DNA from: Anaerolineales bacterium
GTDB taxonomy: Bacteria; Chloroflexota; Anaerolineae; Anaerolineales; UBA11579
Reading direction: 5' to 3'
Assembly (NCBI GenBank): GCA_035291465.1
Contig: DATDRZ010000001.1
Span: 7,616-71,615 of the forward strand
Length of the DNA stretch: 64,000 nucleotides
The notes under the pieces are model-generated. The model did not search any database, had not been told where the DNA came from, and was given only the letters and a program-made list of their open reading frames with translations. The position numbers and the translations under genes were made by a program. Positions 1,778 through 56,398 of this stretch are shown here, in pieces. Each line of letters opens with the position of its first letter. Within the stretch, counting starts at the first letter, position 1.

Positions 1778-3799
1778 CTAATTACATACCAGCGCCAACA
1801 TAGCTTCTGCCGTATTCATATCCGGTGAAGGAGCGTTTGCCTGGACGCGTTGCCACAGCGAACAAAGCATTGTTTCGGTAAAGCGATTGGTATCCAACGT
1901 CTGCCGGGTAAGTTTTTCGGCGAGGGTCCAGCGGCCGGTCATCGCATAACCTTCAATAAATGGAAGAAGCTCTGTGGCATGGTTAGGATTATCCTCTAGG
2001 GCAAATGCTTCGTCCCCCAATTCGGCTACTCTGGCCCAATTCCCCTGCTGGCGGGCAAGGTCGGCCAGTTGAAAAAAGTAGCACCAACTTTCGTGGGATG
2101 GTTCGGAACCAAAAATGGCCGCGGGCTCTATGGTTGCACCGGCGATAATAAGACCGGCTGGGTTAGATAGTGGCACCGCTTCCTTTAATCCATCGGGCAG
2201 TTGTGGATAGCCGAAATCATAGACAGGGTCAAGAACTCGCAGGCAACCCGGCGGCCTGAATAAGATCGTAAGCATCCGGTCCGTTGATCCATGAAAATCC
2301 GCCACAAGATTATTTGTGTTAATTGGGCGTCCCGCTTCCAGCGGATAAAGAAAACTTCCGGGCCGCGTTCTGAGTAGGATATCAGCCGCGTAATAATCCA
2401 GTTCATCATCTTTGTTTCCCGGAGCGTAAAGCCAATTCAGCGGCGCCACCAGGGAATTGTCGGTTAGGTGCATTACTTCGAGTTCATGCAAAACGAAAGT
2501 GGTCCCAGGCTGGACGCGCGGCGCCCTCCAGGTCAATTGCCAGAAAAAGGAGAGCTGGTATCTCCAATCGTCTCGATAATCGACGCCGACCAGCAATTGG
2601 AACGCCAGCGCGCAACCTGCCAGAATAGCCAGAAGGCCTCGGCGAACGGTGGGCCAGCGGAGCAAAGCAACGAGCCCTACTAACAGAATTGATGCCCCCG
2701 CCATCATCGGCAAGGTGAGCCTGTCATTGGGAAAGGCGAACCGCATCGGCAGGCCGATTGCCCAAACAGGCAGACCCGATACAACCAGTGTAATGAAACC
2801 GAGGGCGATGGCCGAGCGGGCAAAATTCGCTTGCCCATCCGGCCGATCACGGAGAGCGAAAAAGAACCAAATCGCCGCGAGGGGAAGAATAGCTGCGGCA
2901 AGCAGGGTGAAACGCGAAGCCCAATCTGACTGCAGAAGCCTGGCAATTGGAACACCCCATGCGACTATCCCGCTTAAGAGAATCTCGCTTATTACCTTTA
3001 GCCCAAGTGAGAAAATTGTTTGGGAAGGAGCCGCTTCTGTTGCGATGCCCAGGTCGTAAGTATGGAAACCGAGAATGAAGATGCGCCAATAGGCATAGAG
3101 CAGGATCATTACTGCATAGGGCCACCATAGACGGCAAACCTGCTTGAAACGTCTGTCGATCGTCCCCCCAGGTAGGACGAGAAAAAGGAGCACAGGCCGC
3201 AACAGCTCCAGGCCAAAGAAGTACTCGTTGGCAAACAGTGCGTAGGTGGCCATGCCCAGCGCCGCGATGCTGGGAAGAGTTTTCCGGTGCACAAAATCGC
3301 TTCGATGGCCTTTTTCCGTCTCGACCGAGCCCTGAGCAATCCCGATATGCAGCCACAGTGAAACCAGAGCCAGCGCGAGCACCACATAAAAATGCCCGTA
3401 CATGTTGGCGATGGGCGACTGGCTGAATCCCGGATAAAGGACGAAAAGCAAGGCTGCCCAGTTTACGGCTTCAGGCTGTTTTGGCCAGAGGCGTTTGAGC
3501 AACGCCCAAAATGCGATCCCGCTGAACCACCGCGTGATCACTCCAAATAGTTGCCACAGGATTATGGACGATCCGATCAAAGGTGTGGTTAGCTGATAAA
3601 GCCAGCCCCAGAACGGCCGGTTGGTGGAAAAATATCGGGTTAACCCCTCAGATCCGTATGTTTCGCTAATCCAGACAAAGGGCCAGCCGTCCCAATAAAA
3701 ACCCAGACTGGGCGCAAACAGCGCGTAAGCTGCCACACAAGCGGCGAACAATACTAATGGGACTCGATAGCGGGTCAAAAGGGATCCCCATTTGCTCAT
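1778..3799 (-). CDS. polytopic membrane protein, probable GT-C fold glycosyltransferase (ArnT/PMT-like) with a C-terminal soluble domain
   Basis: 673-aa ORF. The first ~430 residues hold many hydrophobic helices, followed by a ~240-aa soluble tail. It sits directly upstream of, and co-directional with, the GT2 polyprenyl-phosphate sugar synthase. The family call is inferred from architecture and context. Confidence 0.5.
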   Translation of the reverse strand: MSKWGSLLTRYRVPLVLFAACVAAYALFAPSLGFYWDGWPFVWISETYGSEGLTRYFSTNRPFWGWLYQLTTPLIGSSIILWQLFGVITRWFSGIAFWALLKRLWPKQPEAVNWAALLFVLYPGFSQSPIANMYGHFYVVLALALVSLWLHIGIAQGSVETEKGHRSDFVHRKTLPSIAALGMATYALFANEYFFGLELLRPVLLFLVLPGGTIDRRFKQVCRLWWPYAVMILLYAYWRIFILGFHTYDLGIATEAAPSQTIFSLGLKVISEILLSGIVAWGVPIARLLQSDWASRFTLLAAAILPLAAIWFFFALRDRPDGQANFARSAIALGFITLVVSGLPVWAIGLPMRFAFPNDRLTLPMMAGASILLVGLVALLRWPTVRRGLLAILAGCALAFQLLVGVDYRDDWRYQLSFFWQLTWRAPRVQPGTTFVLHELEVMHLTDNSLVAPLNWLYAPGNKDDELDYYAADILLRTRPGSFLYPLEAGRPINTNNLVADFHGSTDRMLTILFRPPGCLRVLDPVYDFGYPQLPDGLKEAVPLSNPAGLIIAGATIEPAAIFGSEPSHESWCYFFQLADLARQQGNWARVAELGDEAFALEDNPNHATELLPFIEGYAMTGRWTLAEKLTRQTLDTNRFTETMLCSLWQRVQANAPSPDMNTAEAMLALVCN

Positions 3800-31167: not shown

Positions 31168-31866
31168 TTAGTCTGCGCCAACAGCCGCAAGAGCGTCTTC
31201 AATCATGGATTGCAGCATTGAAAGCGGTTGGGCTCCAGCAACGATCTGATCGTTAATTTGGAACGTGGGGGTGCTGTCGACACCGATAGCGCGAGCATCC
31301 AACGCGGCTTGCTCGACAGCTTGTAATTTAACATCACTGGCAACACATTCGTTATAGGCATTCATATCCAGTCCCGCAGCCTGTGCAAAGTCAGCCAGAT
31401 TACTATCGGAGTATCCGCCTGAATTTTGCGACGAAAAACTGCCGAAGACCGCGTCGTGGAACTCCCAGAACTTATTCTGCTCGGCGGCACAATAGGCCGC
31501 CTCTGTGGCCTGCACGGATTCCGGACCTAAGATGGCGAGGATTACAAATTGATAATTGATCTGACCCGTGTCCACGTATTGTTTCACAATGGCTTCTTCG
31601 GTTGTCGCCCAGGATTGACGGCAAAACGAGCATTGAAAATCTGCATATTCAATCAATGTCACCGGCGCGTCCGGATCGCCAAGCAAGGCGCCGGTTTGCG
31701 CAGACGCGTATTCTCGAATAGACGCACTCCGCACCATGTTGGACAAAATGAGCAAGCCTACGACCGCCACCGCCGCTATGCTTATATATACCAACCATCT
31801 CAATTGCCCGCGCCTCTGCTGGGCGCGGTTGCGCTCTAAGCGAGCCTGCCGCCTGCTTTGATCCAT
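31168..31866 (-). CDS. membrane-anchored DsbA-family thiol:disulfide oxidoreductase
   Basis: N-terminal TM anchor and the thioredoxin-fold motif YADFQCSFCRQ. Confidence 0.8.
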   Translation of the reverse strand: MDQSRRQARLERNRAQQRRGQLRWLVYISIAAVAVVGLLILSNMVRSASIREYASAQTGALLGDPDAPVTLIEYADFQCSFCRQSWATTEEAIVKQYVDTGQINYQFVILAILGPESVQATEAAYCAAEQNKFWEFHDAVFGSFSSQNSGGYSDSNLADFAQAAGLDMNAYNECVASDVKLQAVEQAALDARAIGVDSTPTFQINDQIVAGAQPLSMLQSMIEDALAAVGAD

Positions 31867-31883: not shown

Positions 31884-32609
31884 TTAGTAGGGTTCGCCGT
31901 ACAGCGGGATGCGCGCACCGTTGATCATTCCCGCTTCCTCGCTGCACAGGTGTAGAAGTGTAGCAGATATTTCTTCAGGGGTGGTCCAGCTTTGGTTCTT
32001 TTCGCTGGGGTTGATCTGCCGCTCATGGGCGACATCAATCATGCGCACCATCAGCAGATTCGAGGTGACTCCCGTCCCCCTGAGTTCTTGGGCCAGCGAC
32101 AGCATCAAAGCCTCCATAGCCGACTTCCCTATCGCATAAGGCGCATTATTGCCCGGTGGCCTGCTTGCACTTGGGGATGTAACGGCGAGTACGCGCCCCC
32201 AATGGTTCTTTACCATGGTCGGCACAAATGATTTGATCATTGCGTAGCCGGCATACAGATGTTGATCCAGCATGGATACCAATTCTTCCCGCTTGGTTTC
32301 GAAAACACCCTTGCCGCCAATCCAGCCGCCTACAAAGTTTAACAAGATATCGATTCCCCCGAATTTTTCCAGCAGATCGTTAGCGACCCTGTCAACTTCC
32401 TGCGGCCTGCCAAGGTCGACGGCTTTCGCAAGGGTTCGGGCGGCAGGCAGGTTTAGTTCCGCAGCCAGTTCATCGAGCTTCCCCTGATCGCGGCCAAGAA
32501 GCGCAAGTTTTGCTCCAGATTTCGCAAAAGCGGCCGTGGCAACTGAACCCAAACCGCCGGCTGCTCCGGCGATGATGACAGTCCGTTCCTCAAGCGATGC
32601 ATTGTTCAT
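31884..32609 (-). CDS. short-chain dehydrogenase/reductase (SDR)
   Basis: IIAGAAGGLGSVATAAF (TGxxxGxG-like) and catalytic YAIGKSA (YxxxK). Confidence 0.85.
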   Translation of the reverse strand: MNNASLEERTVIIAGAAGGLGSVATAAFAKSGAKLALLGRDQGKLDELAAELNLPAARTLAKAVDLGRPQEVDRVANDLLEKFGGIDILLNFVGGWIGGKGVFETKREELVSMLDQHLYAGYAMIKSFVPTMVKNHWGRVLAVTSPSASRPPGNNAPYAIGKSAMEALMLSLAQELRGTGVTSNLLMVRMIDVAHERQINPSEKNQSWTTPEEISATLLHLCSEEAGMINGARIPLYGEPY

Positions 32610-32618
32610 GAATTCACT

Positions 32619-33476
32619 CTAGATGACTTGATTCTGGTATACAGGGAAGCGCTCCCCCGTGAATTTGAATCCCAATTTCTTATAAAGCGCCAGTGATGGA
32701 GTGTTGATATCCTGCGTATTGACCGTCAGTCTATCCAGATTGCGGCCGGCCTGAGCTTGCAAGTCCTTCACCAAAGCCGTTGCCAGGCCGCGTCCCTGAT
32801 GTTGGGGATTAGTGGCCAACCTGGCGAGATGCAACCCTTGTGAACTGCGCGTACTGATTTGATATGCCACGGTTTGTCCCTCGTCCTCAATTAAGGTCGC
32901 GTACCCAGCTTGTTCAAACGCCATCTCTACCGCTTCCAGCGAGTTCTGCCACAAAGGTGCAAAGGCTGCGCGATCCACTTCGTACACCCCTTCGAGATCG
33001 AATTCTTTCATGCGGCGAATGACCGGCTGAGCGTCTTTTGCCGCTTTTTCCTTACCGCGCCAATCTAAAACCACTACGTTATGTACGTGCTGAAACCGAC
33101 TCTTGGCCAGGATCTTCAGGAACCAATCCTGTAATGGGATTGCCGCTACGGATTCTGCCTCCAATTCGACCAGATGTTCGCGCGTTTGCGGCCAAAGTGA
33201 GGCCCACGCTTCCGCGGGATCCAGGCGGGTGGCCACTGCAAAGATACGCACCCAGGCAACGCCGGGTGGGTCAGGCGGGCAGGCGAGCGCAGCGTTTAGC
33301 CTGTCACCCGATTCGAGAACAAAGTAGGGGTCGCGTCCCAGCCAATCCAAAGGCTGCCGCCAATCCAGGTGGCGGTGCACGTGGGTTTCGAAATGCAGCA
33401 GGTTGGCCAACCGGCTGCGATCCTCTTCCATTGCGGGGCGAAGGCTGAGGACGGCGGGAGCGGCCATCGCGGTCAT
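32619..33476 (-). CDS. GNAT-family N-acetyltransferase (two-domain)
   Basis: The C-terminal LATNPQHQGRGLATALVKDL...LYKKLGF is a GNAT acetyl-CoA binding pattern. The N-terminal half resembles a second, degenerate GNAT fold. Confidence 0.7.
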   Translation of the reverse strand: MTAMAAPAVLSLRPAMEEDRSRLANLLHFETHVHRHLDWRQPLDWLGRDPYFVLESGDRLNAALACPPDPPGVAWVRIFAVATRLDPAEAWASLWPQTREHLVELEAESVAAIPLQDWFLKILAKSRFQHVHNVVVLDWRGKEKAAKDAQPVIRRMKEFDLEGVYEVDRAAFAPLWQNSLEAVEMAFEQAGYATLIEDEGQTVAYQISTRSSQGLHLARLATNPQHQGRGLATALVKDLQAQAGRNLDRLTVNTQDINTPSLALYKKLGFKFTGERFPVYQNQVI

Positions 33477-33558: not shown

Positions 33559-35967
33559 CTATTCACCCAGGATGTGTTTGAAGAACGCCTCGACGACTGC
33601 TGGGTCGAAGTGTTTTCCTGATTGTTCTCGAAGGTAATTGCGCACTTTGTCTTTCGGCCACGCGGCGCGGTACGGGCGGTCAGAGGTCAAGGCATCCCAA
33701 ACGTCAATCGCGGCAAAGATACGCGCCTCTAGCGGGATCTGTTTTCCTTTGAGCCCCTGTGGGTAGCCAGTGCCATCCCACTTTTCATGATGGCTGGTCG
33801 GAATGGCCATGGCAGGATGTAGGAATTCGATGGGCGCCAGCATTTGGCGAGCGAATTCCGGGTGCTTGCGCATGTGCACCCATTCCTGATCATCCAGGGG
33901 TCCGGTTTTGCGCAAGATGCGATCGGGGATGCTCATTTTGCCGATATCGTGCAGCAGCGCCCCCCTGCGCACATGGACCAATTGATCGTCGCTGAACCCC
34001 AGGGCGCGGGCGAGTCTTACGGTCATGTCGGTGACGCGGCGGCTATGCTCCACGGTCTCCATATCGCGTAGGGAAAGCGCGTGCGCCCAGCCTTCGATGG
34101 TGCGTTCATAGGCTTTGCGCAGGTCCTGGTTGGATCGCTGCAGGTCTTCGAATAGTTTTGCATTATCGATGGCGATTGCTGCCTGGCCCGCCAAGGTTTG
34201 CAAGAAATCCTTCCACTCTTCATTGCGCTCTACCGGGCTTCTTTGGAAAGTTTCAAGGATACCAATCACCTTGCCTTTGGCAATCAGAGGCGTTGCGTAA
34301 TAACTGGTGAATCCCTCCGGCTTCACCATATCAAGGAATTCGGGAGGTGGCGAAACTTCCGAAATGAGAGGCGCCTCCAGCATGGCTCGATCTTTGGCCG
34401 CGCGGCCCGCCAAGCCTTGACCAAGTTTGATATTCGCCGTTTTAGCTTTTTCAGTACGGAAACCTTCACCCGCGGCAAATCTGAGAATTTGTTCCTCATC
34501 GAGGAGTAGAACACAGGCGGCATCTACCCGTAGCTCGTTGATTGCTTGGGTGGCGACGACATCCAAAGTCAAATTGATGTCGAAGCTCGAGGCAATGGCT
34601 CTATCGATTTCCCGCAGGCTGCGCAAATGTCGCAGCCGCCGCTGCGTTTGCTCAAATAATTCCGCGCGATGAATGGCATTGCCGCCAATATCGCACATGG
34701 CGCTCAGTACGTCGACATCGTGATCATCGATTGGCTCCTCACGACCGACGGCCAGGGTACCAATGACCTGGTTTTCTGCCGTAATGGGCACGATGACCAG
34801 AGCTTCCGTGGGTTCGAGGTAGCCAAATTTCACAGTTTTCGGATCGGGATGGGATCGGAATTGGTTATTGACGTAGGGTTTGCCGCTGGCAACCACTTCG
34901 CTGGTTAATCCCTGACCTTTGGGAATGACCTGGCCGACGGCAGCCGCCTGTGCACCTCTGCCCACGGCGATCAGATGATCACCGTTGTGCTCCTGAACCA
35001 GTGTGATCGTGCCCTCGGTAGTTCCGGTCGAAACCAGCGCCTGATCCAGAACGATCGGCAGCATCTCTTCGAGACTGCTGGCTGAACGCAACTTGCCGCT
35101 CACTGCGGCGACTGCCTCCAGTTCCCGCTCATGTTGCTTGCGTTCCGTGATGTCGCGCAAGATTAATTGACTGGCAGGCTGATCTTCGAAGATCAAGGGA
35201 GTGCCGGTGACCTCGACCTCGATCAATTTGCCATCCAGGCGATAGAGTTTTTCCTCCATAGGCGGGAGGCTTTTTCCTTCGATCTGAGCCCTGCGAATAC
35301 GTTCGAGCACCGCTTCTCGGTAATCCTTGTGAACAAACGACATCACATCCTTGCCAACCAGATCTTCGGATTTCGTTGCCCCCATTAATTTCATGGCCGC
35401 GGGATTTACAAATTTCACAACGCCTTGGCTATGAACGATGATCGAATCCGGCATCATGTCCACCAGTGACTGATAGCGCTCCTGACTTTCCCGCAACAAC
35501 CGGTCGGCCTCCTCGCGCTCGATGGAATGCCGAATCGAGCGAAGCAGTATTTCGCCGGTGATTTGCCCTTTGACCAAATAATCCTGGGCGCCGCTGCGCA
35601 CCGCATGGACAGCCAGGTCTACATCGTTCAAACCGCTGAGCACAATGACGGTGAATGCTTCGGCTTTCTCGTGGAAACGCGTAAAGGTTTCAAAGCCCTG
35701 GCTGTCGGGTAAACCCAAATCCAGTAAGACTGCATCTAAAGGTTTTTCGGGATCGCCAACATATTTCAAACCCTCCTTGAGGCTGGAGACATGTTCAAAT
35801 CGCAAGTTGATGTTGCCTGTATCTTTCAGCATTTCCTGGATCAGGCGTGCGTCCCCAGGGTTGTCTTCGATTAACAGCACGCGAATCGGATTTTCTTTTC
35901 GCCCTGGGGGTTCGCGGCTGGGTACCAGTTCGCCGGTGCTGCTTAAAACTCCGGTGGGTTTGGTCAT
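33559..35967 (-). CDS. response regulator receiver-PAS-GAF-GAF-HD-GYP protein (probable c-di-GMP phosphodiesterase)
   Basis: REC domain: VLLIEDNPGDARL...AVLLDLGLPDSQG. A PAS segment ends in RDITERKQHE. Two GAF-like segments follow. HD-GYP domain: LLHDIGK...HHEKWDGTGYPQGL. ATG at 35967 lies 1 nt after the stop of the upstream small ORF. Confidence 0.85.
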   Translation of the reverse strand: MTKPTGVLSSTGELVPSREPPGRKENPIRVLLIEDNPGDARLIQEMLKDTGNINLRFEHVSSLKEGLKYVGDPEKPLDAVLLDLGLPDSQGFETFTRFHEKAEAFTVIVLSGLNDVDLAVHAVRSGAQDYLVKGQITGEILLRSIRHSIEREEADRLLRESQERYQSLVDMMPDSIIVHSQGVVKFVNPAAMKLMGATKSEDLVGKDVMSFVHKDYREAVLERIRRAQIEGKSLPPMEEKLYRLDGKLIEVEVTGTPLIFEDQPASQLILRDITERKQHERELEAVAAVSGKLRSASSLEEMLPIVLDQALVSTGTTEGTITLVQEHNGDHLIAVGRGAQAAAVGQVIPKGQGLTSEVVASGKPYVNNQFRSHPDPKTVKFGYLEPTEALVIVPITAENQVIGTLAVGREEPIDDHDVDVLSAMCDIGGNAIHRAELFEQTQRRLRHLRSLREIDRAIASSFDINLTLDVVATQAINELRVDAACVLLLDEEQILRFAAGEGFRTEKAKTANIKLGQGLAGRAAKDRAMLEAPLISEVSPPPEFLDMVKPEGFTSYYATPLIAKGKVIGILETFQRSPVERNEEWKDFLQTLAGQAAIAIDNAKLFEDLQRSNQDLRKAYERTIEGWAHALSLRDMETVEHSRRVTDMTVRLARALGFSDDQLVHVRRGALLHDIGKMSIPDRILRKTGPLDDQEWVHMRKHPEFARQMLAPIEFLHPAMAIPTSHHEKWDGTGYPQGLKGKQIPLEARIFAAIDVWDALTSDRPYRAAWPKDKVRNYLREQSGKHFDPAVVEAFFKHILGE

Positions 35968-35968
35968 A

Positions 35969-36142
35969 TCACTCTTTCCCGGTGTCCCCATGAGGGAGCA
36001 AAAAACGGTCATTCAGATAAACGGAGCCGCCATCGGAAACGCGCGTGATGACAATGGCACCTGGGCAGGTTTCGACGACCACGCGAAAAGTTCTTCGCCG
36101 GGTGGTTCTGAATCTACCTGTTTCAATGAACGGCTTGATCAT
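35969..36142 (-). CDS. small hypothetical protein (57 aa)
   Basis: MIKPFIETGRFRTTRRRTFRVVVETCPGAIVITRVSDGGSVYLNDRFLLPHGDTGKE. GGTGAGG lies 11 nt upstream of the ATG. The stop abuts the next gene's ATG (TGAtATG). No recognisable family. Confidence 0.3.
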   Translation of the reverse strand: MIKPFIETGRFRTTRRRTFRVVVETCPGAIVITRVSDGGSVYLNDRFLLPHGDTGKE

Positions 36143-36278
36143 GGTTTTTATAACCTCACCCCCAGATGACAACGGGTTTGTGATGCGGGCTAGGCGAAAC
36201 TCTTAGGAGTGAGGCTTAAGTATATTTGTGTTGGCTATTTGCGAACCCACAGATTTGTTAGGGCTGCCGGGCATTTGC

Positions 36279-36965
36279 CTACTTCGCGCTGGCCAGTAAA
36301 TCCTCGATGCTGTCTACCAGCGCCCGTAATTTCTCTACGGATGTTCCCTTTAAACGTTGAGCAATTTCTAGATAAGGCCTGTTCTTGGGATCACTAATAA
36401 ATTCCTTTACCGCTCGCGGCAATGCGGCAAATTTTTCTTCCGCGCGCTGCTGGTTGATCCATTCGCCTACCGGTCCACTGTTGTCTGCGAACTGATCGAT
36501 GTGATAGCCGAGGTTGCCGGCCAGTAGTTCCAATTCCGGCAGCGGCACCGGAGTTTCGCCGCTTTCGTAGCGACGGATTCGGCCGGTGGAAATCCCCGTT
36601 CTATCGGCCAAATCCTTCTGGCTTAAATTCTTTTCTGTGCGCGCCTGGCGCAGCATGGCGGCGATGGCGCGCTGGCGCAGCGCCAGCAAGTTTCCCGTTT
36701 CCAGACGCGACGTCGGGTGCGGCTCCTGTGAAACGACCTGCGCGCTCCAAAAATGGTCGATCGGCGTCCCAAGGTAGAAAGCGAGTAATTCCAATTCGGG
36801 TAATGAAGGGGAATTTGACCCTTGTTCGATGGATCTGATCGCTCCACTGGAAAGACCTATTACGTCGCCCAGTTCTTTCATGGATTTTCCGGCCGCTAAA
36901 CGCGCATCGCGCAAGTGCAAACCGATGATCTTGGCGCGCAATCGCATTGCTTTGTCTTGTGACAT
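36279..36965 (-). CDS. XRE-family transcriptional regulator with two HTH domains
   Basis: Two Cro/C1-type HTH segments: LRDARLAAGKSMKELGDVIGLSSGAIRSIEQG and LRQARTEKNLSQKDLADRTGISTGRIRRYESG. Confidence 0.75.
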   Translation of the reverse strand: MSQDKAMRLRAKIIGLHLRDARLAAGKSMKELGDVIGLSSGAIRSIEQGSNSPSLPELELLAFYLGTPIDHFWSAQVVSQEPHPTSRLETGNLLALRQRAIAAMLRQARTEKNLSQKDLADRTGISTGRIRRYESGETPVPLPELELLAGNLGYHIDQFADNSGPVGEWINQQRAEEKFAALPRAVKEFISDPKNRPYLEIAQRLKGTSVEKLRALVDSIEDLLASAK

Positions 36966-37040
36966 TGGCTTTTAAGAAGACCCTACCCAGTCAGTGGGCA
37001 TTATATAGCATCCCTACCCCCATTCCTATTTTCGGAGTGA

Positions 37041-37724
37041 TCAGGGCATCATGTATCCTTCGCCGGAGAGCGTCACAATCACCTGGGGATTCCTCGGGTC
37101 TTTCTCGAGTTTCTGACGCAAGCGCGAGATACTCACCCATAGGATTTCTTTTTCATCCCCGTACTCGGGGCCCCATACAGTTTGCAGCAATTCCTCCGAG
37201 GTCAAGGTCTTGCCTGCATTGCGTGCAAATTCCAGCAGTAGCCGGTATTCGGTGGCAGAGAGAGGAACCAGCTCGCCGCCTACGCTAACCTCTGCCCGGG
37301 CGAAGTCAATGGCTATGTTGCCGCGCGAGAATCGGCTTTCGCCGAACTGGGGCGCCATTAGCTTGGCGCGGCGCAGGACGGCTCGCACGCGGGCCAGCAA
37401 TTCATTGGCAGAAAAGGGTTTGACCACATAATCGTCGGCGCCCAGGTTAAGTCCGCGCACTTTATGTTCCTCGTCGCCTTTCGCTGTGAGCATAATGATG
37501 GGGATGGTGGAGAATTCGCGGATGCGTTCGCAAACGGCGAAGCCGTCCATTTCGGGCATCATCACATCAAGCAAAATCAGATCGGGTTTTTCGCTTACGG
37601 TCATGTCGATCGCCTGTTGTCCGTTCTTGGCCTTTAATACCTCAAAACCCTCGGTCTGCAGGTTTGCCTCGACTAATCGAACAAAGCGGGGTTCATCATC
37701 TACGACAAGGATGCGTTCTGCCAT
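37041..37724 (-). CDS. OmpR-family DNA-binding response regulator
   Basis: ILVVDDEPRFV...DLILLDVMMPEMDG receiver domain and LTSEELLQTVWGPEY...VSISRLRQKLE winged helix. Confidence 0.9.
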   Translation of the reverse strand: MAERILVVDDEPRFVRLVEANLQTEGFEVLKAKNGQQAIDMTVSEKPDLILLDVMMPEMDGFAVCERIREFSTIPIIMLTAKGDEEHKVRGLNLGADDYVVKPFSANELLARVRAVLRRAKLMAPQFGESRFSRGNIAIDFARAEVSVGGELVPLSATEYRLLLEFARNAGKTLTSEELLQTVWGPEYGDEKEILWVSISRLRQKLEKDPRNPQVIVTLSGEGYMMP

Positions 37725-37737
37725 GATTACCTCTCAG

Positions 37738-38967
37738 TCATGCGGGTTGCGGAAGACGTGTTTTGGGTAAGGTGACGATGAATTCTGCTCCGTCTCCCCT
37801 TGTTGAACGGACGCTGATCTTCCCCTGATGGGCTTGCACGATTTGCTTGCATATATACAGACCCAATCCGCTGCCGCGGACCTTTTCTTTTGCGTCTTCC
37901 GTGCGGTAAAAACGCTTGAAGATGTGTTTTTGTTCTTCGTTTGGAACGCCCGGTCCGCGGTCTCTGACCATCAACTCGACATTTTCCTCATTGTAGCCCA
38001 GGGAAATCTGCAGAGGGGAGTCGGGCGCATATTTGGCCGCATTGCTGACCAGATTTTCGAGCACCTGGCTAAGCCGTTTGGGGTCAGCCTCAATAATAAA
38101 ATCGTCCTCCCTGGGCGCCCATTGAATATTCAACCCGGGATATCGGATCCGCAGGCGTTCGACATTCTCACTAACCAGGGCGGATAAATCCACAGTCTTT
38201 AATTCGATGTCCAGGGTTCCGGCCTGTAAACGCGACGAATCCAAGAGGTTGTCCACCAATTCAGTCAACCGATCCGTTTCTTCGTTGATTATGGTGAGGA
38301 ATTCTTTTTGGGTTGCCGCATCCCAGTGCGCATCGTCTCGCAGCAAGGTGGTCGCGTAACCCTTGATAAAGCCGAGGGGCGTCTTTAATTCGTGAGAAAC
38401 CGTGGCAATGAAATCAGATTGCAGTTGGACCAGCCGCCGTTCCGCTTCCAGGCGGCCGATACGCTCCACCAGCCGCTTATGTTCAAGGACCTGCGTGACG
38501 TGAAGGGCAATGAATTGAGCCAGATTGATTTGGTCGTCGGCAAATAGGGGTCCGCCAAAGCGCACGAAGATCAGCGCGCCAGTATTTTTGCCGCCAAGCA
38601 ACAACGGCAGTCCCAAAAAGAAGCGCTGCTCCAGACGATTTTGGTTGGCCATGATCTCGGGGTGGTTCAGGAAGATCTTTCCCGTGGAGAAAGCTTCTTT
38701 GGCAGCCGCCTCTCCCCAGGCCGAATCCGCTTCCGAAGAGCGGCCGCGACCGATGGCTCTGGCGAAGGCGGGCTCCAGGTTTCCCGTCTGCTCGTTGATT
38801 AAATACAGCACCGCGTTATCGAAGATGAACACCGGGCGCGACAAGCGCACGATTTCCGCTAAGGCAGTGTCTACCTCAATAGTTTCTGCCACTGTACGGC
38901 TGATGGCATAAACGGCGACCAGCTCGTTAGGCCGCAAGCTGCCAGTGGCTCCAGTTCGCTTAGTCAT
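37738..38967 (-). CDS. soluble GAF-domain sensor histidine kinase
   Basis: N-terminal GAF-like ~170 aa. HisKA H-box [13 protein letters not shown]. HATPase_c N/G boxes ([26 protein letters not shown]). No TM helices. Confidence 0.85.
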
Positions 38968-40019
38968 AGCTTTCCTTGGTAGATAGGCAGGGCGAAGGAA
39001 AAACGACTGCCCTTGCCGGTACGTGTTTCGATTTGCAGCTTTGAACCATGAGCTTCGACGATACGCTTTGCCAGGGTGAGGCCAATTCCGGCCCCGCCTG
39101 CTTTGCGAGTCGACGAGCTGTCCAATTGGTGGAATGGCTCAAAGATCTCATTCATTCTTTCCGCGGGTATACCGATGCCTGTGTCGGCGACAGCGATTTG
39201 TATCCGCCGTCCATCCAGTTCAGCACTTAGTCGTACCTGGCCGCCTGGCTGGTTGAACTTGATTGCGTTGTCGACCAGTTGGCCGAGCACCCATTCGATT
39301 TTGTTGATGTCTGCCTGTGCGGGCGGCGCCTTGACAGGGCAGGAGGCGCTAATTTGTACCTCTGCCGAATTGGATTTATCTTTGTATCGTTGGGTAACCA
39401 GAGCGAAAAGATCCGAAATGTTGACCGGGCCAGCCTCCAAATGCAAACTTTCAGCGGTATCGAAGGCCAGGTAAAGGAGGTTTTCGATCAAGTTGCTTAA
39501 CCTCTTGTAGGATTTTTCGAGCACCTTGAGTGCGCTGCGCTGTTCGTCGCTGAGCGGACCTAAGGCCTCTGCGGACAACAAATCGATATAACCGACCATA
39601 TGGGCCAGCGGCGTTCTCAATTCGTGGGAAATATTGGAGATGAAATTGTTCTTTAAGCGGTTGAGCTCAGTAAGTTTGTCCAGGGCTTCTTGCAGCTCGG
39701 CGGTACGTTCACGCACGCGCTGCTCCAGGAAAAGGTTGCTTTCATGCAGCGCTTCCTGTAATTGAGAGATTTGCTGGGTAATGGCAGCGTCGAGTTTGCC
39801 GCGCTCGATCAACCCCAAATCGGTTAGCGCCTGCCCGAGCAGGATGCGAGTTCCCTTTTCCTCTTGTTCTTTTTGGTAGGCGAGGGCGCGCTTTAGCTCG
39901 GCGGGAGTAAGCAAACCCTGGTCTACCAGGGTGTCACCAAGGCGAGGCACCAGAACTTCCGGGGCCAAAGGCCCAGTAATTTTCGGCTTTGGCAAAGTCA
40001 CCACGTCACCGTACCGCAT
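38964..40019 (-). CDS. soluble sensor histidine kinase with N-terminal MshEN/T2SSE_N-type (c-di-GMP-binding) domain
   Basis: The N-terminus [24 protein letters not shown] matches the 24-residue MshEN motif. A second degenerate copy is [25 protein letters not shown]-box [12 protein letters not shown] and HATPase_c ([26 protein letters not shown]) follow. It overlaps the next kinase gene by 4 nt. Confidence 0.8.
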
Positions 40020-40285
40020 TGTTCGGCGCCCTTATCAATTCCCGGGGGTAACAAAAACGTATAGGCGAAGCAAATTTCCACCTCGGGTTTGCTTTTTCGA
40101 AAGTATACATGGGCGTATGGTCTAAACAAGCGGTACATAACTCCTAACTGAATTATTAGGCATCTACCGGCAAACGGCAAGACCTACGCTTAGGTATAAT
40201 CCATAAGTCTAAACAAAGCTCTGACCAAGAAAGCCCTAGTTTCCGGCCTCCTTATATATCCCAAGAACATTTCGAAAGGTAGTCT

Positions 40286-50029: not shown

Positions 50030-50130
50030 CATTCATCCAGAGAGGCGGAGGGACCGGCCCTGTGAAGCCTCGGCAACCGCCGCGAAAGCGGAAGGTGCCA
50101 ATTCCGGCAGCTAAGTCTGGAAGATGAAAG
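50030..50130 (+). promoter_or_regulatory. SAM-I (S-box) riboswitch
   Basis: TTCATCCAGAGAGGCGGAGGGACCGGCCCTGTGAAGCCTCGGCAACC...GAAGGTGCCAATTCCGGCAG...GGAAGATGAA matches the S-box core. P1 pairs TTCATC (50032-50037) with GATGAA (50123-50128). Confidence 0.85.
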
Positions 50131-50148
50131 GGTGGTTGAGAAATATCG

Positions 50149-50179
50149 AGACCCTTTCATTCCGCGAAAGGGTCTTTTT
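50149..50179 (+). terminator. riboswitch expression-platform terminator
   Basis: GACCCTTTC (50150-50158) / GAAAGGGTC (50166-50174) followed by TTTTT. ATGAAAGGGT (50124-50133) can instead pair with ACCCTTTCAT (50151-50160) as an antiterminator. Confidence 0.75.
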
Positions 50180-50204
50180 GTTCAATCCTGGAGGTTTGTT
50201 TTCG

Positions 50205-51416
<1,212 letters not shown>

Positions 51417-52007: not shown

Positions 52008-52079
52008 GGGCGCGTAGCTCAACGGCAGAGCAGTGGCCTTTTAAGCCATTGGTTGGAGGTTCGAATCCTCCCGCGCTCA
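52008..52079 (+). tRNA. tRNA-Lys (anticodon UUU)
   Basis: The manual cloverleaf is as follows. Acceptor GGGCGCG/CGCGCTC with one G-U pair. D stem GCTC/GAGC. Anticodon stem GTGGC/GCCAT with loop CTTTTAA (TTT at 52040-52042). T arm GGAGG-TTCGAAT-CCTCC. Discriminator A. CCA is not encoded. Confidence 0.9.
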
Positions 52080-52138
52080 TTCATTTTTCCCGTAAATTTG
52101 GTCTTTTCCCTGGTATTTATGGAATTGAATTAAGTGGT

Positions 52139-52409
52139 GGGTGCAATTGGGTGCAATTAAGAGATCCTCGTAAGGGCAGGGGCTTTTTACGCCAAAGGTA
52201 GACGACTGGTCTGAAATTTTTCTAGAACTTTTTGCCCGTAAGATCGGATTATTCCGAGCAATTCCACTGACTGTGGGGTGCAATTATGGTGCAACGGGCG
52301 GGTGCAAGTGCCAATGTAATGAACACCTTTTACAAATGGTTGTTAAGCTGCAGGTTCGAGACTTGACGGGCCAAATGTATGGCGGGTTGGCGAAGGTGCT
52401 AGTGCCAAT
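52139..52409. repeat. array of GGGTGCAATT / GGTGCAA-core direct repeats
   Basis: GGGTGCAATT occurs at 52139-52148, 52149-52158 (tandem) and 52276-52285. GGTGCAA occurs at 52288-52294. GGTGCAAGTGCCAAT (52301-52315) and GGTGCTAGTGCCAAT (52395-52409) are a near-identical pair. Confidence 0.6.
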
Positions 52410-52544
52410 TCTGGTGGGGCTCGACTTTGCGGAAAATGGGTTTTTCTAATAAACCCCAATTTGGGCTGGAAAGAGATTCGCAGTGAGTCTTTGAAGTTGA
52501 TGACTTGTTTAGTCTAGATAATGATGTGGCAGCATGGGGATTTT

Positions 52545-53207
52545 TTACTTCTTACTTTCGAAGGAATGATAGGTTTCCAAGAGTGAAACGAGTACCTGAT
52601 TGGTGAAAGCCTCTATCTTTTTGCCCATTTCTTTCCACGCGGGCGCCGAATGAATAGCTGCTGTTTCGTAAGCAGTAAATAGGGCGTCTTGCAGAGCGGC
52701 GCGAAAAAACAAATAAGCTTGCGTGGCCTCTATCAAGCTCAATCCATGCCGGCGTCCCAAAACCGCGTAGTCGTGGCCTGCTGCATGGGCTTCCGCTTGC
52801 TTCTTCTCATCGTTCGCCACTAGAAAATTCAAGAGGCTGTGAACCAGTTTGCGGCCGCTGCGCCGAAATTCCTCCCGCGCATTTTGATCTATTTTGGCAT
52901 ACCAATTTTCGGTTTCAAGACCCCCCTCGCTAATCTGCAGCCGTGTATGCGCCAAGGCGCTACGTAACAACGAAGAGGAGACTTTTTTAGGGATTCTCTG
53001 CCTCGATTTCGCCCACAGCTCCAATTCTTGTTTGCGAAAGCGCCGATGGCCGCCTCTGGTTCGATGGGAGGGCAGATGGCCCTTATCCGCCCATATGCGA
53101 ATTGTGCTGGGGTGCATTCCCAGCGCTTTTGCCACCTGACTGAGGGTAAGCCATTCGCCCTCTCTCCCTTTGGGCGCGATCAAGAAGCACACTCCTGCCC
53201 CCTGCAA
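52545..53207 (-). CDS. excisionase/MerR-type HTH DNA-binding protein with an unassigned C-terminal domain
   Basis: LTLSQVAKALGMHPSTIRIWADKGHLPSHRTRGGHRRF is an HTH_17-like motif. The ~150-aa helical C-terminal domain is of unknown family. The start is uncertain. Confidence 0.6.
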   Translation of the reverse strand: MQGAGVCFLIAPKGREGEWLTLSQVAKALGMHPSTIRIWADKGHLPSHRTRGGHRRFRKQELELWAKSRQRIPKKVSSSLLRSALAHTRLQISEGGLETENWYAKIDQNAREEFRRSGRKLVHSLLNFLVANDEKKQAEAHAAGHDYAVLGRRHGLSLIEATQAYLFFRAALQDALFTAYETAAIHSAPAWKEMGKKIEAFTNQVLVSLLETYHSFESKK

Positions 53208-53463
53208 TTCAGAAGCATCAGAACAATTCGCGGTTCTTCGATGCCGCTGGATAAGGCGAATTCAGGTTCCAAGTAATCAGGCATCGAGAGTGGTTTAGTT
53301 TCCGAACGCGGGACTTTAGCCAAGTTATTCATGATTCGCAATGTAGGATTGCTTAGGTTTGCCGGGTAAAAGCGGAAATTACATAAAGTTAAGTTTACTC
53401 AAAACGAATCTATTCTTATTATCCGGGCTTGATTACCCTTCTGGAAATGGTTGGTCGCTATTC

Positions 53464-54177
53464 ATGCCCGGACAAACACCTCGTACATTAAATCACTTCG
53501 CCTTTTTTCGATTCCGTCAAACTTACCATCGGCTTGATAATCACCAACGTAAAGAGCTGCATCGCCAGCTGCTCGTGCACTTAGGCCATGCGGCAGGTCA
53601 TCTGGATATTTATCAAATCTATCCGACCTCAGAAGCGGCAGACATTCTGGTATGGACAGCGGTAGAGGCCAGCGACCCTCAATCCCCCCACGATTTTTTT
53701 GCGCGCTTTAGCCAGGCAGTTGCTCCTTTCTTCGATCTGATTGAACCCGTGCATACACTTTGGGGCTTGACTAAGCCCTCCCAATACACCAAGAGTCGTT
53801 CCACCCAGGAAATCGATCCTTTCGCCAAATCTCGCAAGATCTATTTGACAATTTATCCCTTTACCAAAACCAGCGATTGGTACCTAATGAGCCGCGAAGC
53901 CCGTCAGGGCATGATGAACGAGCACATCCGTATAGGAAAAGAATATCCGGAGATTAAGCAGTTGCTCCTTTATTCATTTGGTTTGCAGGACCAGGAATTT
54001 GTGGTGGTTTATGAGACCGATGACCTTGCCCAATTCTCGGACCTGGTCTATGTTCTTCGCGATACGGAAGCACGTCGCTTCACCAAAAGTGATGCTCCAC
54101 TTTTCACTGCTCTTTACCACAAACCGGAAGAAACCCTGGCTTTGTGGGAGCGGCGGGCGGACATCGAGACGGTTTGA
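53464..54177 (+). CDS. chdC: chlorite dismutase-family protein, probable coproheme decarboxylase
   Basis: ATG at 53464 (MPGQTPRTLNHFAFFRF...). KIYLTIYPFTKTSDWYLMSREARQGMMNEHIRIG is typical of HemQ/ChdC. The stop overlaps the ferrochelatase ATG (TGATG). Confidence 0.8.
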   Translation: MPGQTPRTLNHFAFFRFRQTYHRLDNHQRKELHRQLLVHLGHAAGHLDIYQIYPTSEAADILVWTAVEASDPQSPHDFFARFSQAVAPFFDLIEPVHTLWGLTKPSQYTKSRSTQEIDPFAKSRKIYLTIYPFTKTSDWYLMSREARQGMMNEHIRIGKEYPEIKQLLLYSFGLQDQEFVVVYETDDLAQFSDLVYVLRDTEARRFTKSDAPLFTALYHKPEETLALWERRADIETV

Positions 54178-55127
54178 TGATTCCCGGCAAACCAGAAACC
54201 ATCGGCTTGCTACTTATGGCCTATGGTAGCCCGGAAGACCTCAGCCAAATGGAAGCTTATCTTCTGGATGTGCGTGGAGGCCGCGCGCCATCATCGGGGC
54301 TGATAGAAGAAATTGGCAGACGCTATAAGATGATTGGAGGTAAATCTCCTCTTTTGGAGAGAACCAGCCAGCAGGCAAAGGCGCTGGAAAATGAATTGAA
54401 CAAACGTTTCGCCAACAGCAAGGGCAAAACCTTCAAAGCATTTGTAGGGATGCGCCACTGGCAGCCTCGTATCCACAGTGCAATAAATCAAATGGCTGCG
54501 GCCGATATTCACAAGGCAGTGGCAGTGGTAATGGCTCCGCATAATTCTCGTATGAGCACTGGAAAGTATTATCAAATGCTGGACGAAGCAATGGATGGAC
54601 AAAAAATAGATTTTATACGTATCCAAAGCTGGCATAAGCATCCAACTCTACTTGACGCCATTGCTGAAAAAATGGAGATTAGCTTGGCCAAGTTCGGCGA
54701 CACAGTTCCTTTTGTCGTCTTTACCGCCCACAGCCTGCCCATCCAAATCCTGGAAATGGGCGATCCCTACAACGACCAACTCAATGAAACCGCCCGATTG
54801 CTGGCCGAGCGACTGAAACTGCGGGCTGATCAATGGCAGTTTTGCTACCAGAGTGCGGGTGAAAACACCATTCCGTGGCTCGGACCGCAAATTGAAGAAG
54901 TGGTTGTCGAACTTGCCAAGAAAGGTGAAAAGAACCTACTAGTGGTACCAATTGGATTTGTTTGTGATCATGTGGAAGTGCTTTACGACATTGACATCAG
55001 AGCTCGTCAGATCGCTGAACAACATGGCGCCCGCCTTGAGCGAACCCCATCACTGAACGATTCCCCAACTTTTGTTGCCGCATTGGCTGATGTGGTCCAA
55101 GAGAAATTGTGGCGGGATAAACCATAA
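54177..55127 (+). CDS. hemH: ferrochelatase (coproporphyrin ferrochelatase type by context)
   Basis: IGLLLMAYGSPEDL...YKMIGGKSPL...FTAHSLP...VVPIGFVCDHVEVLYDID. Confidence 0.9.
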   Translation: MIPGKPETIGLLLMAYGSPEDLSQMEAYLLDVRGGRAPSSGLIEEIGRRYKMIGGKSPLLERTSQQAKALENELNKRFANSKGKTFKAFVGMRHWQPRIHSAINQMAAADIHKAVAVVMAPHNSRMSTGKYYQMLDEAMDGQKIDFIRIQSWHKHPTLLDAIAEKMEISLAKFGDTVPFVVFTAHSLPIQILEMGDPYNDQLNETARLLAERLKLRADQWQFCYQSAGENTIPWLGPQIEEVVVELAKKGEKNLLVVPIGFVCDHVEVLYDIDIRARQIAEQHGARLERTPSLNDSPTFVAALADVVQEKLWRDKP

Positions 55128-55132
55128 ATAGC

Positions 55133-56398
55133 ATGAACCTGCTTTGTCTTGGCCTTAGCCATCACACCGCGCCGCTGGCGTTGCGCGAAAAGCTTGCCAT
55201 GGGGGAAACGGCGCTTCAAGTCTTTCTAAACGAACAGCTATCCACAGGCAAGGTAGGCGAGATCGCCGTGCTTTCTACGTGCAACCGGGTGGAAATCTAC
55301 TTTACTTCTTCGCAAAGTGGCTTTGACCAAATGATTGAGGATTTAGCTGCAGCGAACGGTGTAAAGCCGCAAGAGTTAAAAGTCCACAGTTATGGCTTGA
55401 AAAACGATGAAGGGGTGAGACATTTGTTCCGTGTGGCTGCTGGCCTAGACTCGCTGGTGGTAGGAGAAGCGCAAATCCTAGGGCAGGTCGCACAGGCCTA
55501 CGAATTTGCCCGTGCCCACCAAACTGTCGGGCTGCGCCTATCCAAGCTTTTTCAGGCAGCCATCTTCAGCGCCAAACGGGTGCAAAGTGAAACCGCATTA
55601 AGCCGATTGTCTACCTCGGTTCCTTCTCTCGCCGTTAAGTTAGCCAGCCGTCAGGGCAAGCGTTTGGATCAAGCACACATACTGTTGGTCGGGGCCGGGG
55701 AAATGGCCGAGTTGGCGGTGGAAGCCTTTCGCAAACACGGCGTAAAGCGATTTAGCGTAGCAAGCCGCACGCTGCACAGCGCAGAAAAGTTGGCTCGGCG
55801 CTGGAACGGGCGCGCCGGCACACTTGATCAGTTATCCCAATACCTTGCAGATGTCGACGTACTGCTGTGTTCATCTTCATCTCAAGATTTTTTGATTGAT
55901 AAAGAGATGGTTGATCAAGTCATGTCAATCCGCCCGCAAAGGCCGCTGGTGATTCTGGATATTGCGGTCCCCCGCGATGTGCATCCGGATGTAAAGCAGG
56001 TGAAAAACGTCTTTCTCTATGATATGGACGATCTACAACAAGGGGTGGAAGTATTGCAATCCGCGCGCAGCAGAGAGCTTCCTCGGGCGCGGCAAATTGT
56101 GGATGAAGAAGTCCGGGATTTCATTGCTTATTCAATCGACCTGGATGTCATGGTCCCAGTGATTCGCGGTCTGCGTCAGCAAGCCGAAAATATTCGCCAC
56201 GAAGAGTTACAAAAAACTCTGCGGCGCCTTCCCAACCTCACTCCGGAACAACAGGAGCAAATTGGCGCTCTTACGCGTTCCATAGTGAGAAAACTGCTGC
56301 ACAACCCTACCGCACACTTGCGCCAGCGAACCACAGACGAAAATAACGATCGTTATGCGGCTGTCGCTCGCCAGCTTTTTGGATTGGATCAGGAATAA
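55133..56398 (+). CDS. hemA: glutamyl-tRNA reductase
   Basis: LGLSHHTAPLALREKLA...LSTCNRVEIY...GLDSLVVGEAQILGQV...LLVGAGEMAEL. Confidence 0.93.
   Translation: MNLLCLGLSHHTAPLALREKLAMGETALQVFLNEQLSTGKVGEIAVLSTCNRVEIYFTSSQSGFDQMIEDLAAANGVKPQELKVHSYGLKNDEGVRHLFRVAAGLDSLVVGEAQILGQVAQAYEFARAHQTVGLRLSKLFQAAIFSAKRVQSETALSRLSTSVPSLAVKLASRQGKRLDQAHILLVGAGEMAELAVEAFRKHGVKRFSVASRTLHSAEKLARRWNGRAGTLDQLSQYLADVDVLLCSSSSQDFLIDKEMVDQVMSIRPQRPLVILDIAVPRDVHPDVKQVKNVFLYDMDDLQQGVEVLQSARSRELPRARQIVDEEVRDFIAYSIDLDVMVPVIRGLRQQAENIRHEELQKTLRRLPNLTPEQQEQIGALTRSIVRKLLHNPTAHLRQRTTDENNDRYAAVARQLFGLDQE

Follow-up and report, generated by a model that had tools for sequence, protein, structure and literature searches.

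Several kinases couple the second messenger cyclic diguanosine monophosphate (c-di-GMP) to two-component systems: CckA binds it at the catalytic domain, PdtaS through a GAF domain and SgmT through the I-site of a GGDEF domain. ShkA binds it via a pseudo-receiver domain; in all four, c-di-GMP directly sets kinase activity and so links the messenger to two-component output, and no MshEN domain is described for any of them in the review of these kinases (PMC10519070). The MshEN_N fold has to date been recognised in ATPases of secretion and of pili, such as MshE of Vibrio cholerae (5HTL) and PilF of Thermus thermophilus (8PDK, 8PFA), and in a few other predicted fusions. The residues of MshEN that contact the ligand were identified by Wang et al. 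2016, and the published fusions of MshEN_N comprise REC, HD-GYP, CheA, CheX, cyclases, a Ser/Thr kinase and a glycosyltransferase, with no HisKA-type kinase listed (PMC5013675). The present work deals with a minus-strand array of genes from an Anaerolineales bacterium (assembly GCA_035291465.1, contig DATDRZ010000001.1), lying within a stretch of 64,000 nucleotides (nt) that was analysed as a whole and is called the window below. The first gene of the array encodes a histidine kinase, HK1, with a putative c-di-GMP-binding N-terminal region of MshEN_N type; further genes encode a second kinase (HK2), an OmpR-type response regulator (RR), a tandem helix-turn-helix (HTH) protein of XRE type and a REC-PAS-GAF-GAF-HD-GYP protein.

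The array is read, with slightly more confidence than doubt, as a composite of two signalling modules within a conserved chromosomal block of Anaerolineae. The ancestral and near-universal module comprises HK1 and HK2, which are translationally coupled, and a single OmpR-type RR, followed by the XRE protein and a GNAT acetyltransferase. Binding of c-di-GMP to the N-terminal bundle would shift the kinase/phosphatase balance of HK1, the GAF domain of HK2 would add a second cytoplasmic input, and both kinases would act on the adjacent RR. The accessory module, placed between the XRE and GNAT genes, comprises a PAS-containing histidine kinase (PAS-HK) and the HD-GYP protein; the PAS-HK is deleted in this genome, and the receiver of the HD-GYP protein would thereby be orphaned. 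The link between the two modules is most likely the messenger c-di-GMP itself and less likely direct phosphotransfer: the HD-GYP enzyme would lower the level of c-di-GMP, HK1 would read that level, and feedback on HK1 would result. The orphaned receiver may be silent, may be served by a distant kinase or, as the least supported option, may be served by HK1 or HK2.

The gene of HK1 (38964-40019, minus strand) encodes 351 amino acids (aa) with the Pfam domains HisKA (4e-17) and HATPase_c (1e-27), and the catalytic motifs are present, namely H132, N251, G1 279-283 (DTGIGI, from 279) and G2 308-313 (GGAGIGL, from 308). The MshEN_N-type region occupies residues 26-83 (39771-39944, minus strand) and consists of motif I (R26-Q49), a spacer (K50-I59) and motif II (L60-Q83). 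Searches of HK1 against Pfam and NCBIfam gave no MshEN assignment, the only match being DUF4388 (E 0.005, isolated N-terminus). A profile built from the N-terminal 79 residues of 15 HK1 family members (profile A2) matched, among PDB sequences, PilF 6f8l from T. thermophilus (9.4e-13), MshE 5htl from V. cholerae (2.6e-8) and several PilB chains. The AlphaFold2 (AF2) fragment model of the N-terminus, with a predicted local distance difference test score (pLDDT) of 81, is a four-helix bundle (residues 27-33, 39-54, 61-67 and 73 onward); the seven best PDB matches of this model in Foldseek were all c-di-GMP-bound forms of MshE and of PilF GSPII-B (5htl, 8pfa, 8pdk), with a root-mean-square deviation of 2.0-2.3 Å and 33-38% identity (5htl, 2.2 Å over 60 columns). 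Since the profile and fold searches agree, the MshEN label given to HK1 in the preliminary description of the array was accepted on their grounds, and not on those of Pfam or NCBIfam.

HK1 shares with MshE and PilF the bundle formed by two tandem 24-residue motifs of the type RLGxx..LxxxLxxQ. Unlike in these proteins, the domain is fused to HisKA/HATPase_c and not to an ATPase of a type II secretion system or type IV pilus, only the MshEN_N subdomain is present, and the HK1 family has its own invariant lead-in, PEVLVP. The stretch R26-Q49 agrees at every position with the motif I consensus RLGxx(L/V/I)(L/V/I)xxG(L/V/I)(L/V/I)xxxxLxxxLxxQ. Residues L42, L46, Q49 and G62 are invariant in all 78 HK1 family sequences and Q83 is found in 77 of them; R26-L27-G28 are also invariant, partly owing to how the sequences were collected. 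In motif II, L61, L/I76 and V/I80 are kept, while Thr takes the second hydrophobic position in the window protein. In the full-length AF2 model, a helix spanning residues 73-149 runs unbroken from bundle helix 4 through His132 (pLDDT of the block 70-88), and there is thus an obvious route from ligand to kinase. Judging from the sequence and the models, HK1 probably binds c-di-GMP through its MshEN_N bundle.

More than 100 homologues of HK1 were found at 50-99% identity, the named ones all belonging to metagenome-assembled genomes of Anaerolineales or Chloroflexi. The best 150 matches form at least 27 clusters at 50% identity, and homologues are present in hundreds of metagenome contigs. In a library clustered at 50%, the N-terminal profile matched 486 representatives at E <= 1e-10; among the representatives of 320-410 aa with a single match, HisKA was found in 27 of 30. 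In the literature that was searched, nothing relevant was found on a kinase combining MshEN with HisKA, on c-di-GMP kinases of Anaerolineae or on DUF6812. Some of the more distant homologues (P0102, P0108, P0111, P0115 and P0116) contain an extra N-terminal zinc-ribbon (CxxC...CxxC; Pfam Zn_ribbon_3) before the MshEN_N bundle; in total, this element occurs in 7 of the 31 sequences scanned, i.e., 30 library representatives and HK1 of the window (alignment A1, columns 1-45). In a sister family of 500-820 aa, represented by P0263, P0281, P0292, P0309, P0311, P0313, P0325, P0352, P0278 and P0297, the HK1 N-terminal profile is matched over its full length; two GAF regions come after this domain, and there is no kinase core.

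The gene of HK2 (37738-38967, minus strand, 409 aa) begins with an ATG that overlaps the stop codon of HK1 by 4 nt (ATGA). HK2 contains the Pfam domains HisKA and HATPase_c and a GAF domain (27.9 bits at a cut-off of 22.4), and its catalytic motifs are present (H192, N309, DRGPGV 336 and GSGLGL 365). Both kinases were taken as soluble, as had been proposed, because their hydrophobic segments are too short for a membrane helix (maximum Kyte-Doolittle(19) values of 1.07 for HK1 and 1.45 for HK2). The gene of RR (37041-37724, minus strand, 227 aa) follows after a gap of 13 nt and encodes the Pfam domains Response_reg (3e-34) and Trans_reg_C (2e-22), with the phospho-acceptor set D9, D10, D53, T80 and K102. 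The best NCBIfam models for RR are RpaB, MtrA, YycF and PhoB, all below cut-off (RpaB, 223 bits vs 330). RR is 61-91% identical in relatives whose HK1 is 47-80% identical, and it is the only adjacent DNA-binding receiver.

Positions of the DHp domain close to the H-box set partner choice in EnvZ-type kinases. At H+7/H+11/H+12, T or A/G/Y is found in 77 HK1s, G/G/Y in 53 HK2s and R/S/Y in the PAS-HKs, and the H-box itself is HDLQEPLR in PAS-HK as against HELRTPL or HELKTPL in HK1 and HK2. These classes suggest that HK1 and HK2 have one partner in common and PAS-HK another; RR is likely the partner shared by HK1 and HK2. The XRE protein (36279-36965, minus strand, 228 aa), the gene of which lies 75 nt after that of RR, contains two HTH_3 stretches according to Pfam, and only weak single-HTH matches were obtained for it in the PDB (HigA, E 0.0012).

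Gene order around HK1 homologues was determined by tblastn in 80 family loci (designated L) collected from metagenomes with profile A2 and in further loci found by exact look-up; the denominators given below are loci that extend far enough downstream of HK1. In a scan of genome contigs with the full-length HK1 alignment, the H-box pattern hit kinases of all phyla, and only L007-L009 were true family loci. HK2 was found downstream of HK1 in 54 of 57 loci, RR in 46 of 49, the tandem-HTH XRE gene in 33 of 34 and GNAT in 29 of 31. A gene of a 179-aa TPR protein was present in 22/31 loci, that of a REC-ParA/MinD-like (TadZ-like) ATPase in 19/34, DUF6812 in 14/34 and that of a T2SSE-family (TadA-like) ATPase in 11/34. 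The HD-GYP gene was found in 6 loci and PAS-HK in 4, out of 31 in each case. Although gyrA lies upstream of HK1 in no more than 13 of 46 loci, the order downstream is preserved; slow rearrangement of the neighbourhood is accordingly not all that keeps the block together.

The preliminary description had treated the array as a single unit of six genes, but HK1-HK2-RR-XRE(-GNAT) is kept without the HD-GYP gene in 25 of the 31 loci, and the low frequency of the HD-GYP and PAS-HK genes, set against at least 93% for each of HK2, RR, XRE and GNAT, speaks against co-inheritance of all six. The conserved synteny across Chloroflexota that it had proposed to look for exists for HK1-HK2-RR-XRE-GNAT in Anaerolineae/Anaerolineales, and does not extend to the HD-GYP gene, which is accessory.

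The fullest order, HK1-HK2-RR-TadZ-like-DUF6812-TadA-like-XRE-TPR-GNAT, is present in 6 loci, and the commonest one, which lacks DUF6812 and TadA, in 8. The TadZ-like, DUF6812 and TadA-like genes occupy the interval between RR and XRE, as in L092/L173 (11124-13956) and also in L106, L113, L118, L145, L158, L164 and L170; only fragments of these genes are left in L171 and L117. In L147 (9863-12332), the TadA-like ATPase gene directly follows HK1 with an overlap of 17 nt, and XRE-TPR-GNAT come next. The lineage of the window lost the TadZ-like, DUF6812, TadA-like and TPR genes; no TadZ/CpaE-like or TadA/CpaF-like genes were found in the 64-kb window by tblastn with the L092 proteins as queries. 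The two ATPases of the relatives are counterparts of the Tad/Flp pair CpaE/TadZ (actinobacterial 'Ssd', TIGR03815) and TadA/CpaF (TIGR03819): the REC-ParA/MinD-like ATPase is closest to the CpaE/'Ssd' model and the T2SSE-family ATPase to TadA (TIGR03819, 2e-102), although both remain below the NCBIfam cut-offs. No genes of pilins, TadB/C or prepilin peptidase were found in the fuller blocks. Judged from the ancestral neighbours, a Tad-like ATPase module is a candidate output of RR and the XRE protein.

The HD-GYP gene (33559-35967, minus strand) encodes a protein of 802 aa with the Pfam domains Response_reg, PAS, two GAF and HD_5/HD (HD_5, 2.8e-36). Its metal and substrate motifs are complete (H641, H673-D674, H702, HHEKWDGTGYP 726-736 and D755), its best PDB match is the GAF-HD-GYP protein 4mcw (E 1.3e-49 over residues 446-799), and the phospho-acceptor residues of the receiver are all kept (E34, D35, D83, S111 and K133). 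The orthologue group comprises 44 clusters at 63-100% identity. The protein is predicted to be an active c-di-GMP phosphodiesterase with an orphaned receiver. It resembles RpfG and 'RpfX' (REC-HD-GYP and REC-PAS-HD-GYP) and the PmGH family (4MCW) in being receiver-controlled with PAS/GAF modulators, and differs from them in its greater length and REC-PAS-GAF-GAF-HD-GYP organisation. In some REC-PAS-HD-GYP proteins, activity depends on phosphorylation or removal of the receiver (10.1101/2021.11.05.467447). A start of the gene at 35967, one base past the stop of a 57-aa open reading frame (ORF), is chosen by gene callers in six assemblies; an 817-aa ORF reaching 36012 was rejected as over-extended.

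The 57-aa ORF itself (35969-36142, minus strand), which lies 136 nt after the XRE gene and gave no Pfam or NCBIfam match, had been counted as one of the six genes. It is a frameshifted relic of the HD-GYP protein's own PAS kinase. In L087, L090, L091 and L097, a PAS-HisKA-HATPase kinase of 373-374 aa sits between the XRE and HD-GYP genes, and in L087, L091 and L090 (HK1 identity of 80, 77 and 73%) the kinase stop and the HD-GYP start share 4 nt. In a tblastn comparison of the L087 kinase with the window, kinase residues 15-54 match the 57-aa ORF (E 3e-11, 55% identity); the frame changes for residues 47-53 (FCALMGV / FCSLMGT), which account for the part by which the 817-aa ORF is spuriously extended at its N-terminus, and the following ~950 nt of the kinase gene are missing from the window. 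The match, the frame shift, the deletion and the intact kinase at the same position in relatives together identify the relic, and the ORF is to be annotated as a pseudogene fragment. The cognate kinase in relatives is a small cytoplasmic PAS-HK, in contrast to the hybrid kinase of the RpfC type. The PAS kinase is also gone in L177, an 86-88% relative with a weaker stump (E 0.004), and in L176, a 67% relative; it was thus lost more than once, with the receiver residues retained.

HD-GYP proteins also occur in the same slot in distant lineages. In L109, the slot between TPR and GNAT is occupied by a gene of a 1350-aa REC-PAS×4-GAF×3-HD-GYP protein with no extra kinase adjacent, and in L173 by that of a 997-aa PAS×2-GAF×3-HD-GYP protein without a receiver; in both, the GAF-HD-GYP part is 46-47% identical to that of the window protein. 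In a rough neighbour-joining tree, the HD-GYP proteins of the window clade are monophyletic, and the pair from L109 and L173 is placed elsewhere. The slot is thus occupied in at least two deep branches, the window clade and L109 with L173, which is more than random insertion would lead one to expect and agrees with a link to HK1 through the messenger. Related REC-PAS-GAF-HD-GYP proteins were also observed in two further loci of Anaerolineae, L178 (6283-13114) and L179 (4609-10108), each at the end of its own kinase-receiver(-GGDEF) run, which suggests that a dedicated kinase is usual in this group.

A number of observations weigh against the composite reading or parts of it. As regards the bundle, motif II of HK1 starts with LLG and not RLG as in MshE and PilF; the position of the motif II Arg is occupied by Leu in 74 of the 78 HK1s, and this residue falls outside the relaxed set [RKPN] of Wang et al. 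2016 (PMC5013675). The spacer between the motifs has 10 residues instead of the canonical 5, Pfam PF05157 (T2SSE_N) gave no match to the isolated HK1 N-terminus even at E 10, and in PilF GSPII-A a Ser at the motif II Arg position abolishes c-di-GMP binding (PMC12002112). [quoted passage not shown] This explanation is nevertheless regarded as doubtful, since the other contacts (R26, L27, G28, L42, L46, Q49, L61, G62, L/I76, V/I80 and Q83) are conserved beyond the needs of the fold and the nearest structures are ligand-bound forms. Of the eight substitutions blamed for the lost c-di-GMP binding of XpsE (PMC5013675), the only one at whose position HK1 differs is R38, the Arg of motif II. Besides, GSPII-C of PilF, which is a c-di-GMP binder (PMC12002112), also has a non-Arg residue at motif II, aligning in the profile alignment with 'PLG' at this motif and with a longer spacer. 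As regards the block, HK2 and RR are absent from three loci that have HK1 (L008, L147 and L154), and the DsbA-like, DUF554, gyrA and ribosomal genes, which make up much of the block in closer relatives, have no obvious signalling role, so that the conserved order is in part genome inertia. An account by which there is no functional unit beyond HK1-HK2-RR, the XRE, HD-GYP and GNAT genes adjoining by slow rearrangement and the HD-GYP pair having landed by chance, would draw on the collinearity from rpsB-tsf-pyrH-frr through gyrA to the DsbA-like and DUF554 genes at 53-80% HK1 identity, on the gaps of 75, 136 and 82 nt, which leave room for separate promoters, on the abundance of HD-GYP genes in the phylum (10.1101/2021.11.05.467447) and on terminator and promoter scans that were uninformative. 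It is unlikely, however, given that the order from HK1 to GNAT is kept in 33 loci with a different upstream flank, that XRE stays by HK1 even where HK2 and RR are absent (L147 and L154), and that filling of the exact XRE/TPR-GNAT slot in two separate HD-GYP clades would hardly be expected of random landing.

The shared slot also bears on the term accessory: the coupling of the HD-GYP gene to the locus could be tighter and older than this term implies. Descent from an ancestral HD-GYP gene of the locus with many losses was considered as an alternative to repeated recruitment; the genes of L109 and L173, in the same slot and at the identity given above, are consistent with it, but P0169 and P0166, which are equally similar (48-50%), are encoded at unrelated loci, after kinases of their own, and the rough tree sets L109 and L173 apart from the window clade; the data are compatible with either course. 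The remaining rival is a branched phosphorelay, in which HK1 and/or HK2 would phosphorylate both RR and the HD-GYP receiver, rewired after loss of the PAS kinase. The loci L176 and L177, like the window, keep the phospho-acceptor residues of the receiver though the kinase is gone, which is compatible with takeover by another kinase and counts against the composite reading; HK1 and HK2 are the nearest kinases to the now-orphaned receiver, and the receiver-bearing HD-GYP protein of L109 occupies the slot with no dedicated kinase adjoining. Such phosphotransfer, which had been suggested in the preliminary description, is quite improbable all the same: in the nearest relatives whose locus is intact, the HD-GYP gene is translationally coupled to that of a dedicated PAS-HK, the H-box of which differs from those of HK1 and HK2 at the partner-setting positions; the HD-GYP receiver has an EDNPGD loop and not the OmpR-type DDEP; the HD-GYP protein of L173 has no receiver; and the HD-GYP gene is absent from most loci. 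From the earlier proposal of a branched circuit, the conserved neighbourhood, the MshEN_N domain and the complete HD-GYP motifs are retained, while the six-gene unit and the phosphotransfer are not; similarly, the feedback loop on c-di-GMP is plausible as a messenger link between HK1 and the phosphodiesterase and is unsupported in its phosphotransfer route. It is very unlikely that the whole of a broader scheme holds, in which HK1 would represent an undescribed class of c-di-GMP-gated HisKA kinases, with MshEN_N leading into DHp, that together with HK2 controls RR, ancestrally over a Tad-like module, with negative feedback by HD-GYP and takeover of its receiver by HK1/HK2 after repeated loss of the PAS kinase.

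The ORFs of the array, their spacing and their domain content agree with the preliminary description according to ORF calls and Pfam. Six metagenome assemblies of this organism, independent of one another, show the same arrangement, which is therefore not an assembly artefact. The co-directional run extends beyond 33559: the GNAT acetyltransferase gene (32619-33476, minus strand; 285 aa, identified by Pfam, with an N-terminal extension of ~150 aa) follows the HD-GYP gene after 82 nt, an SDR gene (31884-32609, minus strand) follows after a further 9 nt, and a DsbA-like gene (31168-31866, minus strand) lies 17 nt after the latter. The divergent upstream neighbour of HK1 in the window is gyrA. 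The gyrA-HK1 intergenic region contains the element ATTATACC (40193-40200, minus strand), invariant in all eight aligned lineages, and the element CATGTATACTTTC (40099-40111, minus strand; 80-92 nt upstream of the HK1 start) is kept in six of the eight. CATGTATACTTTC is a candidate for the -10 region of the promoter of the HK1 operon, and both elements could be promoter -10 regions or operators. The sequence flanking the two elements has diverged across the lineages that keep them. A generic sigma-70 scan gave results not above chance; promoter and terminator scans yielded about as many matches as shuffled sequence does, and for this reason no operon boundaries were drawn from them. No c-di-GMP riboswitch was found in the 64-kb window by the Rfam scan.

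Elsewhere in the window, a SAM riboswitch (Rfam RF00162, 88.7 bits) was found at 50030-50130 on the plus strand, immediately upstream of the S-adenosylmethionine synthetase gene (50124-51416, plus strand) and with a slight overlap at the start listed for that gene. A tRNA gene (52008-52079, plus strand) is followed by the stretch of lowest GC content in the window (0.486, within 52008-54000), and an ORF of 220 aa of MerR/HTH_17 type lies at 52545-53207 on the strand opposite to the tRNA gene; this stretch (52008-54000) may be a small integrated remnant. A heme-biosynthesis run (53359-56398, plus strand) encodes a chlorite-dismutase-like (HemQ-type) protein, ferrochelatase and glutamyl-tRNA reductase. 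The ORF of 673 aa at 1778-3799 (minus strand) gave no Pfam match at E 1e-5.

All parts of the locus belong to known superfamilies; the novelty lies in the fusion of MshEN_N to HisKA-HATPase and in its conserved partnership with a GAF kinase, an OmpR-type RR, a tandem-HTH protein and, ancestrally, Tad-like ATPases. We know of no characterised c-di-GMP outputs in the phylum to which Anaerolineae belong. The HK1 family is large and strongly conserved in Anaerolineae, and if HK1 binds c-di-GMP, the MshEN_N fold would connect the second messenger directly, at the level of a domain, with a two-component phosphorelay of the classical kind. The series of loci, from those with the full Tad-like set to reduced ones, with or without HD-GYP and with or without the PAS kinase, represents natural variants in which the interdependence of the parts can be tested.

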